In this document: positions 46,745 through 55,538 of the stretch, one piece after another | Layout of the letters: each line of letters starts with the position of its first letter | Numbering within the stretch: position 1 is the stretch's first letter | Source: Escherichia coli | GTDB lineage: Bacteria > Pseudomonadota > Gammaproteobacteria > Enterobacterales > Enterobacteriaceae | DNA: 64,000 nucleotides | Direction: 5' to 3' (one strand) | Assembly (NCBI RefSeq): GCF_041248615.1 | Contig: NZ_CP158426.1 | Translations under genes and position numbers: made by a program | Notes under the pieces: model-generated | What the model was told of the DNA's origin: nothing | Database searches by the model: none | Seen by the model: the letters and a program-made list of their open reading frames with translations, nothing else

Positions 46745-47644
46745 ATGTCGCGAAAAGATGGGGTGTTGGCGCTACTGGTAGTGGTCGTATGGGGGCTAAA
46801 TTTTGTGGTCATCAAAGTGGGGCTTCATAACATGCCACCGCTGATGTTGGCCGGTTTGCGCTTTATGCTGGTTGCTTTTCCGGCTATCTTTTTTGTCGCA
46901 CGACCGAAAGTACCACTGAATTTGCTGCTGGGGTATGGATTAACCATCAGTTTTGCGCAGTTTGCTTTTCTTTTTTGTGCCATTAACTTCGGTATGCCTG
47001 CTGGACTGGCTTCGCTGGTGTTACAGGCACAGGCGTTTTTTACTATCGTGCTTGGCGCGTTTACTTTCGGTGAGCGACTGCATGGCAAACAATTGGCGGG
47101 GATCGCCTTAGCGATTTTTGGCGTACTGGTGTTAATCGAAGATAGTCTGAACGGTCAGCATGTGGCGATGCTCGGCTTTATGTTGACCCTGGCGGCAGCA
47201 TTTAGTTGGGCGTGTGGCAACATCTTCAATAAAAAGATCATGTCGCACTCAACGCGTCCGGCGGTGATGTCGCTGGTAATCTGGAGCGCTTTAATCCCAA
47301 TCATTCCCTTCTTTGTTGCCTCGCTGATTCTCGATGGTTCCGCAACCATGATTCACAGTCTGGTTACTATCGATATGACCACCATCTTGTCTCTGATGTA
47401 TCTGGCGTTTGTGGCGACAATTGTTGGTTATGGGATCTGGGGGACGTTACTGGGACGCTATGAAACCTGGCGGGTTGCACCGTTATCGTTACTGGTGCCC
47501 GTAGTAGGACTGGCAAGTGCGGCACTATTGTTGGATGAACGCTTAACGGGTCTACAATTTTTCGGGGCGGTGCTCATTATGACCGGGCTGTATATCAATG
47601 TATTTGGCTTGCGGTGGCGTAAAGCGGTAAAGGTTAGAGGCTAA
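46745..47644 (+). CDS. eamA: Cysteine/O-acetylserine exporter (DMT family), 299 aa
   Basis: Track ORF 306 aa; start placed at MSRKDGVLALLVVVVWG (ATG 46745). Confidence 0.9.
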   Translation: MSRKDGVLALLVVVVWGLNFVVIKVGLHNMPPLMLAGLRFMLVAFPAIFFVARPKVPLNLLLGYGLTISFAQFAFLFCAINFGMPAGLASLVLQAQAFFTIVLGAFTFGERLHGKQLAGIALAIFGVLVLIEDSLNGQHVAMLGFMLTLAAAFSWACGNIFNKKIMSHSTRPAVMSLVIWSALIPIIPFFVASLILDGSATMIHSLVTIDMTTILSLMYLAFVATIVGYGIWGTLLGRYETWRVAPLSLLVPVVGLASAALLLDERLTGLQFFGAVLIMTGLYINVFGLRWRKAVKVRG

Positions 47645-47649
47645 ACCAT

Positions 47650-47693
47650 ACGCACAGAATGTGATGTCAGCACTCTGTGCGTCTGCTTTTATC
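47650..47693 (+). terminator. Rho-independent terminator of eamA; island-side regulator stop codon lies inside its T-tract
   Basis: Stem CGCACAGA/TCTGTGCG with 15-nt loop followed by TCTGCTTTTATC. Confidence 0.6.
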
Positions 47694-48387
47694 GCGGGAA
47701 AAAGTACTTTACCTGGAACTCGAAAATATTGCTGTAAAGTAACGAATAATCCAGCGGAATAGAGTTACTGTCCACAGCCTGGGTCTGAATTTTAAGTATG
47801 GGATCCCGTGGGCTGATCCGTAAAATACTGGCGATTTCTGGGGTAGGAAAAGTAGGGGAGAAAGTTTCAAAGGTGCCAATGATTTTGATCCCGCATTCGT
47901 TCTCAATATACGAAAATTTGGATTTTTGCATATGTGCTACGGTTAAATCAGGAAAACGTGCCACTGACATCCACGTTTCTTCTAATTGTGCTGCATTATC
48001 CTCAATGAATCGCAGTCTCTTTATGTAATAAACCTGCTCACCAGTCACTAAATTCAGCTCAGTCGCAATAGGGGGAGAAGCATCCTGCACTTCAAATTTC
48101 ATAATCTGACTTCCTGCCTCCTTGCCGCTTTTATGCGCAATTTCACTGAAGCTGTTCATGTGATCAATGTGTGCAACAAAATTCTTTTTTTGAATATATG
48201 TTCCTGAACCATGCTTTCTATGAATAATTCCTTCGCCTTCCAGCAAGGATAATGCCTTACGCAGGGTATTACGCGAAACATTATAACGAACAGCGAGTTC
48301 AGCTTCTGACGGCAACAAATCACCAACATGCCATGAATAGCCATTGATCTCGGATTTAAGTAAGCGGGCAATCTTTTGAAAAATCAC
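47689..48387 (-). CDS. GntR/HutC-family transcriptional regulator with UTRA effector domain, 232 aa (bgcR-like), GTG start
   Basis: Track ORF 232 aa; N-terminal GntR HTH (LPSEAELAVRYNVSRNTLRKALSLLEGEGII) ; divergent from the PTS operon. Confidence 0.85.
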   Translation of the reverse strand: MIFQKIARLLKSEINGYSWHVGDLLPSEAELAVRYNVSRNTLRKALSLLEGEGIIHRKHGSGTYIQKKNFVAHIDHMNSFSEIAHKSGKEAGSQIMKFEVQDASPPIATELNLVTGEQVYYIKRLRFIEDNAAQLEETWMSVARFPDLTVAHMQKSKFSYIENECGIKIIGTFETFSPTFPTPEIASILRISPRDPILKIQTQAVDSNSIPLDYSLLYSNIFEFQVKYFFPR

Positions 48388-48502
48388 TTTTGCACCTTTT
48401 AAGAGCCATTGAAAACAAGGAGTTGAGTCCTGATTGGTTTATCGTATGGTCGAGTCGTTTAATTATCACCCTGATGTTGAACAACTTTAGTGCTGTATTA
48501 CT

Positions 48503-48518
48503 GTGATCAATGTACCAG
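48503..48518. promoter_or_regulatory. Candidate CRP site in the PTS operon promoter
   Basis: TGTGA-TCAATG-TACCA (8/10 to TGTGA-N6-TCACA); a TATGAT -10-like hexamer at 48539-48544 would place it near -41.5. Confidence 0.3.
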
Positions 48519-48560
48519 GACGTATAGCTACTGCGGGATATGATATTTACACAATGTAAT

Positions 48561-48574
48561 CTGTTATATACCAG
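48561..48574. promoter_or_regulatory. Candidate HutC-type operator (imperfect palindrome) immediately upstream of EIIB RBS
   Basis: CTGTTATATACCAG resembles GT-N-TA-N-AC style HutC-family operators; overlaps predicted 5' UTR. Confidence 0.25.
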
Positions 48575-48585
48575 TAAGGGAAAAT

Positions 48586-48897
48586 ATGAAAAAGATATTG
48601 TTAGTTTGCGCTGCGGGCATGTCAACCAGTATGCTGGTTAAACGTATGATTGATCATGCTAACGCTATTTCACTTGAAGTTAATATTTCCGCATTGGCGA
48701 TTGCAGAGGCTAAAGGGAAAATTAAAAATAACGAAGTTGACGTTGTTTTACTTGGCCCGCAAGTTCGCTTTCAGAAACCAGAGATTGAAGCTGTTGCACA
48801 GGGGAAAATGCCTGTAGCTGTTATCGAGATGAAAGACTATGGCACCATGAACGGACAGGCAGTTCTTGAATTTGCGATGAAACTACTGCAAGAGTAA
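48586..48897 (+). CDS. PTS lactose/cellobiose-family EIIB component, 103 aa (bgcE-like)
   Basis: Track ORF 103 aa MKKILLVCAAGMSTSMLV... with phosphorylatable Cys in LLVCAAGMSTS motif. Confidence 0.9.
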   Translation: MKKILLVCAAGMSTSMLVKRMIDHANAISLEVNISALAIAEAKGKIKNNEVDVVLLGPQVRFQKPEIEAVAQGKMPVAVIEMKDYGTMNGQAVLEFAMKLLQE

Positions 48898-49010
48898 GAA
48901 TCTAATATTATTAAACTATTACCTGAACTAACTTTTCACACATCATAAAATGGATATGGCATACATGCTTTATTGGGATGTATAAATATCCAGAACAACA
49001 GGTATAAAAA

Positions 49011-50333
49011 ATGGGATTAATGACCTCATTCGAACGTGGAATGGAACGTTTTCTTGTTCCAGTTGCTATCAAGTTAAACTCACAAAAACATGTTGCAGCG
49101 GTGAGAGATGGATTCGTTTTTACGTTTCCAATTATCATGGCAAGCTCATTAATTATATTAATTAACTTTGCCATATTATCGCCCGACGGCTTTATTGCCG
49201 GGCTGCTGCATCTGAACCGCGTTTTCCCCAACCTTGAAAAAGCACAAGCTATTTTTACTCCGGTAATGAATGGCTCTGTAAATATCATGTCAATTATGAT
49301 TGCTTTCCTGGTCGCCAGAAATATGGCGATTAGCTATGAGCAAGATGATCTTTTATGCGGATTAACGGCAATAGGAGCATTTTTTATTGTTTATACGCCA
49401 TATCAGATGATAGATGGGCAAGCATTCCTGACGACCAAATATCTCGGCGCACAGGGGTTGTTTGTTGCTGTTATCGTTGCATTAATCACCAGTGAAATAT
49501 TTTGTCGCTTAGCTCGAAACCCAAAAATCACCATAACGATGCCGGCAGCTGTACCTCCTGCGGTATCGCGTTCATTTAAAGTTTTATTGCCAATATTTTT
49601 TGTCATGGTGTTCTTTTCCGCACTTAATTATTGCCTGACACTGATATCCCCGGCAGGATTAAACGATCTCATTTACACATTAATCCAGACGCCGCTCAAA
49701 CATATGGGAACGAATATCTTTGCGGTAATTATCCTGGGGGCTGTGGGTAATTTCCTGTGGGTGCTGGGGATCCACGGACCTAATACCACCTCGGCAATTC
49801 GAGAAACTGTTTTTTCTGAGGCTAATCTGGAGAATCTCTCCTGGGCCGCTCAACACGGCACTACCTGGGGCGCGCCATATCCGATTACCTGGACTTCTAT
49901 TAATGATGCATTCGCCAACTGCGGCGGTTCAGGTATGACGTTGGGGTTATTGTTGGCTATTTTTATCGCGTCTAAGCGTGCGGAATACCGTGATCTGGCA
50001 AAAATGTCGTTTATCCCCGGTATTTTCAATATCAATGAACCGATAATGTTCGGCCTTCCTATTGTACTTAACCCCATCATGATGGTGCCGTTTATTCTGG
50101 TTCCCATTGTTAACTGTGCCATTGGTTACTTCTTTGTTTCGATGGAAATTATTCCACCGGTTGCTTATGCCGTGCCCTGGACTACGCCCGGACCTTTAAT
50201 TGCTTTCCTCGGAACCGGGGGAAACTGGTTGGCGTTACTGGTGGGTTTTTTATGTTTAGGTGTGGCGACAATGATCTATTTACCTTTTGTTATTGCCGCC
50301 AACAAGGTCAATAACATGACAACTAACGGATAA
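49011..50333 (+). CDS. PTS lactose/cellobiose-family EIIC permease, 440 aa (bgcF-like)
   Basis: Track ORF 440 aa polytopic membrane protein with EIIC-type layout. Confidence 0.88.
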   Translation: MGLMTSFERGMERFLVPVAIKLNSQKHVAAVRDGFVFTFPIIMASSLIILINFAILSPDGFIAGLLHLNRVFPNLEKAQAIFTPVMNGSVNIMSIMIAFLVARNMAISYEQDDLLCGLTAIGAFFIVYTPYQMIDGQAFLTTKYLGAQGLFVAVIVALITSEIFCRLARNPKITITMPAAVPPAVSRSFKVLLPIFFVMVFFSALNYCLTLISPAGLNDLIYTLIQTPLKHMGTNIFAVIILGAVGNFLWVLGIHGPNTTSAIRETVFSEANLENLSWAAQHGTTWGAPYPITWTSINDAFANCGGSGMTLGLLLAIFIASKRAEYRDLAKMSFIPGIFNINEPIMFGLPIVLNPIMMVPFILVPIVNCAIGYFFVSMEIIPPVAYAVPWTTPGPLIAFLGTGGNWLALLVGFLCLGVATMIYLPFVIAANKVNNMTTNG

Positions 50334-50354
50334 TCCCATTTACACAGGAAGGAG

Positions 50355-50672
50355 ATGTTGATGTTTGCAGATGAAGAACTTGTTATGGAGTTACTGATCA
50401 ACGCGGGACAGGCACGTTCTGATGCGATGGAAGCCATACGTTGTGCCGGGCAAAAAGACTGGCAGGGCGCAACTCAGCTAATGGCCAGTTCGGAATTAGC
50501 CTGTCTTCAGGCACATAAGATTCAGACCGCGTTAATTAGTCAGGATGAAGGTTGTGGCAAAATAGAAGTTAATTTAATTCTGGTTCATGCACAGGATCAT
50601 TTGATGAATGCAATATTATGCCAGGATTTAGCCAGGGAAATTATTTCATTAAGAAAAGAGCTCCATGCCTGA
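50355..50672 (+). CDS. PTS lactose/cellobiose-family EIIA component, 105 aa (bgcI-like)
   Basis: Track ORF 105 aa, all-helical EIIA-lac type with conserved His in VHAQDHLM; AGGAAGGAG RBS. Confidence 0.9.
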   Translation: MLMFADEELVMELLINAGQARSDAMEAIRCAGQKDWQGATQLMASSELACLQAHKIQTALISQDEGCGKIEVNLILVHAQDHLMNAILCQDLAREIISLRKELHA

Positions 50673-50676
50673 TTTT

Positions 50677-50702
50677 TTCCTCCAGTGCGATAGCTGGAGG
50701 AA
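50677..50702 (+). other. Intra-operon stem-loop between EIIA and porin genes
   Basis: Perfect 9-bp stem TTCCTCCAG/CTGGAGGAA, 8-nt loop, preceded by T6 and followed by AUUAUUACACUCUU, ending 26 nt before porin ATG. Confidence 0.45.
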
Positions 50703-50724
50703 ATTATTACACTCTTAAGGATAA

Positions 50725-54845
<4,121 letters not shown>

Positions 54846-54874
54846 TGAGACTTCAGGAAGATATTACGGAGATA

Positions 54875-54898
54875 TCAGGCTCTGTGATCAGAGCCTGA
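54875..54898 (-). terminator. Hairpin downstream of marB (terminator candidate for marRAB)
   Basis: 10-bp stem TCAGGCTCTG/CAGAGCCTGA with 4-nt loop, 7 nt beyond marB stop. Confidence 0.5.
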
Positions 54899-54904
54899 CA
54901 ATAA

Positions 54905-55123
54905 CTACATAGCGTGTTGATTATAATAGGGCACGCCGAGCGCATCCGACTTATCACTGCCAGTACCCATGTGATTTAAATCAAACGGTGGTTGTTCCTG
55001 CGATGGGGGAACAACCACGACATTGGCACAGGAAGTAACAACCGGCTGCGTGGTTTGTTCCGCAATGCCCTGCGTGGAAAAGAGAATAAACGCAGCTGCT
55101 ATTGCGGATAAAAGTGGTTTCAT
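54905..55123 (-). CDS. marB: Multiple antibiotic resistance protein MarB, 72 aa
   Basis: Track ORF 72 aa MKPLLSAIAAAFILFSTQGIAEQTTQPVVTSCANVVVVPP... Confidence 0.9.
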   Translation of the reverse strand: MKPLLSAIAAAFILFSTQGIAEQTTQPVVTSCANVVVVPPSQEQPPFDLNHMGTGSDKSDALGVPYYNQHAM

Positions 55124-55154
55124 GATTGCCTCAGTGACGTTGTCACGTTATCAA

Positions 55155-55538
55155 CTAGCTGTTGTAATGATTTAATGGATGTAAAAAGCGCGATTCGCCC
55201 TGCATATTGGTCATCCGGTATTTATGTGGCGGAACATCAAAGTAATTTTTGAAGGTTCGGGTCAGAGTTTGTTGCGACTCGAAGCCATATCGTTCTGCCA
55301 GATAGAGTATCGGCTCGTTACTTTCCTTCAGCTTTTGCGCGATTTCCGTCATCTTACGGCTGCGGATGTATTGGCCTAATGAATGACCGGTTTCTTTTTT
55401 AAACATCCGTTGCAGGTGCCATTTAGAGTAACCCGAACGCTCTGACACTTTCTCCAGTGACAGTGGCGATTCCAGGTTGTCCTCGATCCAGTCCAAAATG
55501 CTATGAATGGTAATAGCGTCAGTATTGCGTCTGGACAT
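55155..55538 (-). CDS. marA: AraC-family activator MarA, 127 aa (alternative start 55544 gives 129 aa)
   Basis: Track ORF 129 aa [48 protein letters not shown]... Confidence 0.93.

Follow-up and report, generated by a model that had tools for sequence, protein, structure and literature searches.

How a six-gene island came to lie between eamA and marB in one part of the Escherichia coli population, and whether the uninterrupted junction of other strains, K-12 included, is the original state of the locus or the trace of a loss, was addressed with a window of 64,000 nucleotides of an E. coli chromosome (contig NZ_CP158426.1; identical to the chromosome of strain NRZ14408), i.e., the whole stretch of DNA that was analysed. 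Gene calls were taken from the RefSeq annotation and from a list of open reading frames, and protein families from NCBIfam, which assigned the cargo of the island to a lactose/cellobiose PTS, a LamB-type porin and a 6-phospho-beta-glucosidase. The regulator of the island faces away from these genes, and Pfam matches located GntR and UTRA domains on its homologues of Citrobacter, Salmonella and E. albertii. On the other side of the island, marB is followed by marA and marR, all on the minus strand (Table 1). With a GC content of 42.6%, the island stays below the 47-49% of its flanks; this lower value, together with the presence of the same module elsewhere in other species, speaks for a foreign origin.

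Table 1. Features of the eamA-marB region in the window (positions count from the first nucleotide of the window).
Feature	Coordinates	Strand	Basis
eamA (O-acetylserine/cysteine exporter)	46745-47644	+	RefSeq; C-termini compared across species
Island-side left spacer	47645-47688		Alignments to empty sites; folds; kept in E. albertii
Imperfect direct repeat, left copy GATGTCAGCACTCTGTG	47663-47679	+	Local alignment
bgcR, GntR/UTRA-family regulator	47689-48387	-	RefSeq, NCBIfam
PTS IIB (lactose/cellobiose family)	48586-48897	+	RefSeq, NCBIfam
PTS IIC (lactose/cellobiose family)	49011-50333	+	RefSeq, NCBIfam
PTS IIA (lactose/cellobiose family)	50361-50672	+	RefSeq, NCBIfam
Carbohydrate porin (LamB family with Sugarporin_N)	50728-52401	+	RefSeq, domain matches, NCBIfam
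GH1 6-phospho-beta-glucosidase gene, 5' fragment (pseudogene in the window strain)	52426-53088	+	RefSeq
IS3-family (IS2-like) element, 1332 bp	53089-54420	-	RefSeq, comparison with intact gene
Glucosidase gene, 3' fragment (stop codon 54846-54848)	54421-54848	+	RefSeq
Imperfect direct repeat, right copy GATATCAG-GCTCTGTG (ATGTCAGGCTCTGTG in SCU-485)	54871-54886	+	Local alignment
Right hairpin TCAGGCTCTG tgat CAGAGCCTGA, presumed marB/glucosidase-side terminator	54875-54898		Folds, alignment
marB, last gene of marRAB (stop codon 54905-54907)	54905-55123	-	RefSeq

Judged on gene content and order, the island is the already described bgc beta-glucoside operon, whose composition and arrangement, as given in PMC3585215 (citing Neelakanta et al., 2009), agree with those of the window. 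As in that operon, a divergent GntR-type regulator is present on the minus strand, and the IIB, IIC and IIA genes, the porin gene and the phospho-beta-glucosidase gene follow one another in a single direction. The window differs from the described operon in its glucosidase gene, which is broken by the IS3-family element with 349 bp of the gene replaced or lost. This insertion was found in one of 5426 E. coli genomes, that of the window strain itself, and strain SCU-485 (L002) carries an intact island with an unbroken glucosidase gene. Once activated, a bgc locus would be expected to let its host use cellobiose, arbutin or salicin for growth. Neelakanta, Sankar and Schnetz are said to have reported in 2009 that the operon also occurs in E. 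albertii, with homologues in Citrobacter, Enterobacter and Klebsiella. Such a distribution is in line with the matches to the module that were seen here in E. albertii, Citrobacter and Enterobacter. The literature search on the eamA-marB junction and on the bgc gene names returned nothing further.

Comparison of the island with empty sites of the K-12 type, which the initial annotation had proposed as a means of defining the breakpoints, gave an exact position on the left. Homology extends through the eamA stop codon (47642-47644) and the first base that can no longer be aligned is 47645, so that the break lies at 47644|47645 and the hairpin found behind eamA (47650-47682) belongs to the island side. 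The junction is hence not located inside the eamA terminator, as had been assumed, but directly behind the eamA stop codon, and the left hairpin is distinct from the hairpin of K-12-type empty sites, GCCCCGAnnnnTCGGGGC. On the eamA side of the break, the gene ends in AAG GTT AGA GGC TAA in the island allele vs AAG GTG GGA AGT TAA in K-12, with four substitutions in its last three codons. The arms of the left hairpin occupy 47650-47658 and 47674-47682, and its predicted folding energy is -17.4 kcal/mol (plus strand, z = -3.1) and -23.3 kcal/mol (minus strand, z = -4.6), none of 200 shuffled sequences being as stable. It is followed by CTGCTTTTAT, the T-run also being written CTGCTTTT or CUGCUUUU, and the bgcR stop codon (complement of 47689-47691) falls within this T-run, exactly where the initial annotation had located it. 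In E. albertii the hairpin is conserved with a single compensatory pair, C-G to A-T. It is presumed to be a bidirectional terminator serving eamA on the plus strand and bgcR on the minus strand.

At the other end of the island, the right hairpin starts 26 nt past the glucosidase stop codon, in agreement with the earlier coordinates, and consists of a 10-bp stem closed by a 4-nt loop, with folding energies of -18.8 and -20.4 kcal/mol on the two strands (z = -3.1 and -4.3). It recurs in E. albertii and in the deletion scar of a further Escherichia genome described below. Neither junction hairpin was flagged by a simple scan for promoters and intrinsic terminators, the left one because its loop is too large (a 15-nt loop region), the right one because a T-run is absent on either strand, and an Rfam search of 47300-55300 at permissive thresholds returned no match. 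Both stems are stable and conserved, and the two hairpins are regarded here as putative terminators.

The ancestral state of the locus was derived from a scan based on EamA, with one genome per species, which yielded 80 loci; marA was found in 76 of them. The distance between eamA and marA remains within 450 nt in 70 of these 76 Enterobacteriaceae loci, and the gap contains a single shared hairpin with the core GCCCCG(C)..(G)CGGGGC (arms AAAAAGCCCCGC..GCGGGGCAAAA). The GCCCCG..CGGGGC core is essentially invariant across about 60 species, and in other genera the hairpin is preceded by an A-run, corresponding to a clear U-run on the marB strand. Within the genus, a GCCCC..GGGGC hairpin occupies the empty sites of E. 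fergusonii, E. whittamii, Escherichia sp. E1V33 and SCPM-O-B-8794, as well as those of E. coli: among 5426 complete E. coli genomes, the island was present in 2481 and a contiguous empty site with this hairpin in 2855. In the empty sites of strain A_5 and of K-12 J53, 30 nt separate the stop codons of eamA and marB. Because both the tight gap and the hairpin are shared across species, the empty state with one terminator is ancestral. Hence, the island was not inserted between two convergent terminators, as first thought, since the gap that received it held only one.

The initial annotation had left room for a deletion scar at this locus. Under such a scenario E. coli would have inherited the island, and removal of the latter would have produced the K-12-type empty site, a view to which two observations lend themselves: the EamA C-terminus of island alleles has kept the ancestral form KVRG*, while that of K-12-type empty alleles is the derived KVGS*, and deletions of the island do occur. 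One of them, in Escherichia sp. MOD1-EC7003 (L007), indicates what such an event leaves behind. There, eamA runs at ...GGCGTAA|TCTCATCGCC... into the final 33 nt of the glucosidase gene, this remnant being followed by the variant right hairpin; the junction is a true deletion of the island. In contrast, no island-derived base is left in K-12-type empty sites, and the hairpin in their 30-nt spacer, which a deletion could not have rebuilt, also occurs in E. fergusonii, E. whittamii, E1V33 and about 60 other species. Moreover, searches of 5426 E. coli genomes for a scar of the MOD1-EC7003 type and for an empty site with the variant right hairpin (GCTCTG..CAGAGC) retrieved neither. The derivation of the K-12-type site by deletion is therefore extremely improbable, and K-12 should not be regarded as a deletion derivative at the eamA-marB locus.

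In the MOD1-EC7003 scar (L007, 10870-10966), the EamA C-terminus is chimeric, being built from the last glucosidase codons. The island also decays in place, as illustrated by the insertion sequence of the window strain and by two partial deletions in E. albertii, a fusion of the porin and glucosidase genes (L088, 9001-11037) and a deletion extending from mgtS into the porin gene of the island (L089, 365-2227). These decay events in E. albertii are independent, and a further E. albertii genome shows a porin region without a gene call (L091, 12902-14658).

On the right, certain identity with empty sites resumes at about 54899-54903, and the position of the break depends on the origin of the right hairpin. 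The latter can be aligned to the ancestral one (CAGGCTCTG..CAGAGCCTGA vs CAAGCCCCG..CGGGGCCTGA): the stems differ by two mirrored C-G to T-A changes that keep the pairing, and the 3' flank is shared, with an alignment score reached by 182 of 5000 shuffles, i.e., modestly better than expected from shuffled sequence. On this basis, the right hairpin would be the ancestral eamA/marRAB hairpin modified by two compensatory changes, with the break near 54875, a reading that we hold to be rather probable. The other candidate is a terminator belonging to the glucosidase gene itself, which would have arrived with the cargo while the ancestral hairpin was deleted at insertion; the junction would then coincide with the GCCTGA microhomology at about 54893-54898. 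Microhomology at junctions is typical of illegitimate recombination, and its presence here fits such an origin, as does the fact that certain homology to empty sites starts only at GCCTGA / AACTAC. Besides, about 60 other species show no variation in the GCCCCG/CGGGGC core, so that four substitutions in it would be unusual. However, the right hairpin lies as far from the marB stop codon as the ancestral one does, its differences in the stem are mirrored transitions that preserve pairing, and its 5' flank CA(A/G)G matches as well. The ancestral hairpin on the marB side was retained by all four other cargos found at this locus (see below), and no such hairpin follows the glucosidase gene in the modules of C. 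koseri, C. freundii and S. salamae. An origin with the cargo is thus a real possibility, though we incline toward a modified ancestral hairpin. Whether ancestral or borne by the cargo, the hairpin confines the right breakpoint to the interval between 54875 and 54898, which brackets this end where the left one could be fixed to the base.

The age of the insertion can be estimated from E. albertii, in which the island occupies the same junctions with both spacers and both hairpins recognisable (type strain, L009, and L088, L089 and L091). Identity between E. coli and E. albertii amounts to 80-84% for bgcR, IIB, IIC, IIA and the porin gene and to 89% for the 3' fragment of the glucosidase gene (bgcA), while in the flanks it amounts to 82-84% for dgcZ, ydeE, eamA, marB, marC and ydeA and to 88-91% for marA and marR. 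Since the island has diverged as much as its flanks, it is as old as they are and its acquisition was old, as the initial annotation had suggested in preference to a recent site-specific integration. In the phylogeny of the genus, E. albertii usually falls outside those cryptic clades in which the empty site is of the ancestral kind. If so, a single ancient insertion would require either a long-lived polymorphism or an early transfer between species.

The same six-gene module, with porin identities of about 80-83%, occurs at locations other than eamA-marB in C. koseri, the C. freundii complex and S. enterica subsp. salamae. Its neighbours are the genes of a transketolase and a DUF1176 protein in the C. 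freundii complex, and those of a serine acetyltransferase and a SpoU methylase in S. enterica subsp. salamae (L086, 5944-12137, and L087, 5955-12142, for the pair). As in Escherichia, the module is thereby placed in both groups between convergent 3' gene ends. No conserved sequence was detected outside the two terminal stop codons among the copies of C. koseri, C. freundii and S. salamae; with nothing conserved beyond its coding ends, the module has no recognisable ends of its own. One contig, labelled as a metagenome-assembled genome of Caldithrix sp. (L004, SMXE01000224.1), was 99% identical to E. coli EamA, MarA and MarR and is almost certainly an E. coli contamination of that assembly.

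The signatures by which mobile elements usually betray themselves were then searched for at the junctions. ARAGORN detected no tRNA or tmRNA in 40000-62000, and the RefSeq annotation of the island contains no integrase or recombinase, only the six bgc genes and one IS3-family transposase. The earlier statement that integrase and tRNA are absent hence holds, with the addition that the island does house a transposase, that of the element at 53089-54420. Neither terminal inverted repeats nor a target duplication were found at 47645 or 54875-54898, and flanking insertion sequence copies are absent, the sole insertion sequence being internal and specific to the strain. Exact-word and seed-extension searches for direct or inverted repeats across the junctions yielded three short words, two of them (10 and 9 nt) located in coding sequence and the third a 7-mer, all within or near the range of shuffled sequences and none at the breakpoints. 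The initial annotation had seen no direct repeats, which is correct for exact copies at the breakpoints but overlooks a weak, imperfect repeat of 15-16 nt, ATGTCAG(CA/G)CTCTGTG, one copy of which begins 19-21 nt into the island from the left, the other being at the right hairpin's 5' arm.

This repeat is the one feature that could speak for a site-specific integration at an att-like core followed by loss of the recombinase gene. In SCU-485 the seven bases ATGTCAG are exact, and the score was reached by 20 of 3000 shuffles, a figure drawn from several comparisons and uncorrected for multiple testing. Nevertheless, the repeat contains a gap and a mismatch, with one further mismatch in the window; in E. 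albertii it is degraded to CTCTGTG (7 nt; 382 of 3000 shuffles, not significant), and no copy of it exists in empty sites. It is also displaced from the left breakpoint, and it behaves neither like an att core nor like a target duplication. The absence of both an integrase and a tRNA, as well as the lack of conserved ends in the module copies of other genera, likewise argue against such an integration, which we judge very unlikely. The repeat itself probably reflects no more than the resemblance between the arms of the two hairpins.

Within E. coli, nearly all differences between the flanks of ordinary island and empty alleles fall in the final 15 nt of eamA. Such near-identity of the flanks is what frequent recombination up to the junction would produce. 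A distinct situation was encountered in 369 genomes, the matches listed all being O157:H7, in which the empty site is part of a sharply bounded tract of about 1.15 kb reaching from the start of eamA to marB (8500-9650 of L092, E. coli O157:H7 PV15-279; also L084). This tract has diverged by about 12% from K-12 vs 0-3% in the surrounding DNA, and its eamA shows 19 mismatches over 900 positions with that of Escherichia sp. E1V33. To judge from these sequences, the tract looks like an import from another species, the arrival of which may have removed the island, and the resulting mosaic fits island loss through allelic replacement. The eamA and marB alleles of O157:H7 resemble those of a cryptic Escherichia clade, which matters for typing and for the interpretation of variation in the mar region. 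A second presence/absence difference was noticed near eamA-marB: in O157:H7 (L092, 5613-7074), ftrA and a gene with a rhodanese domain lie as an extra pair between mgtS and ydeE, and both are missing in K-12 and in the window strain.

The interval between eamA and marB has also received other DNA, insertions unrelated to bgc being present in six of the 76 loci with marA. They comprise Rhs fragments in a C. amalonaticus genome (L017), a LuxR-family gene with an open reading frame of 1379 aa in C. sedlakii (L040), a sugar-acid utilisation operon in Superficieibacter (L082), a small open reading frame in Enterobacter (L071), presumed by eye to encode an acetyltransferase, and a non-coding, MITE-like element of 0.6-0.75 kb in C. 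portucalensis (L013, 6990-7740) and C. youngae (L044, 10912-11470). The latter sits within the loop of the eamA/marB hairpin, is bounded by terminal inverted repeats (CCGTTCAGTTAA / TTAACTGAACGG) and holds palindromes in its interior. REP-like inserts were seen in addition in a Citrobacter metagenome-assembled genome and in E. fergusonii (L014 and L090). Several unrelated cargos have thus settled, lineage by lineage, between one and the same pair of core genes, as in a hotspot, and the four large ones (Rhs, LuxR with its 1379-aa frame, sugar-acid operon and acetyltransferase frame) have kept the ancestral hairpin on the marB side.

The simplest reading of this slot is tolerance, only those insertions surviving that spare both the eamA frame and the marRAB terminator, and such a filter would make the slot a few bases wide. 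An active process directed by the hairpin or the A-tract, and repeatedly delivering cargo devoid of integrase to this slot across the Enterobacteriaceae, is in our opinion unlikely, and none of the observations calls for it. If true, it would also deliver bgc into the similar gaps behind Citrobacter and Salmonella genes.

Taken together, these data lead us to propose, with a probability of about 0.75 for the whole account, that bgc entered this locus by a single, old, integrase-free insertion and is now exchanged as an allele. A lower-GC module of about 6.2 kb, in which bgcR is divergent from the IIB-IIC-IIA, porin and 6-phospho-beta-glucosidase genes, would have been inserted once, long ago, into the gap of a few bases that separated the eamA stop codon from the one hairpin terminating the convergent marRAB operon. 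The original event was presumably one of illegitimate recombination. The module terminates on either side in the 3' end of a gene, so that promoters and reading frames were left intact. Its left hairpin now stands behind both eamA and bgcR, and the one on the marB side stayed beside marB. The insertion is common to E. coli, to E. albertii and, as a scar, to a cryptic Escherichia lineage, with identical breakpoints. Within E. coli, presence and absence would behave as two alleles swapped by homologous recombination in the flanks, rather than by excision of the island.

The junctions are accordingly the ends of an operon already known, at a hotspot of a familiar kind, which amounts to ordinary genome history and involves no new element. 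A characterised cryptic operon with a familiar mode of turnover holds little discovery value, and the use of these results lies in annotation and comparative work; in particular, the hairpin behind eamA in bgc-positive strains differs from the K-12 terminator.

Among the known systems, a comparable one is bgl, the evolutionary fate of which has been followed across the species E. coli (PMC2646131). That article makes no mention of bgc, marB or ydeD. Both bgl and bgc are cryptic beta-glucoside operons of E. coli, but they differ in locus and in genes. With respect to the mode of turnover, Oliveira, Touchon and Rocha reportedly described in 2017 hotspots of integrase-free transfer that lie between core genes and are turned over by recombination in the flanks. 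The eamA-marB slot resembles such core-gene hotspots in its varied cargo, in the lack of mobility genes and in one allele replacement with clear tract boundaries. Unlike hotspots in general, it is extremely narrow, extending from a stop codon to the A-tract or hairpin of the neighbouring terminator, and in each case the ancestral hairpin appears to survive on one side of the insert.
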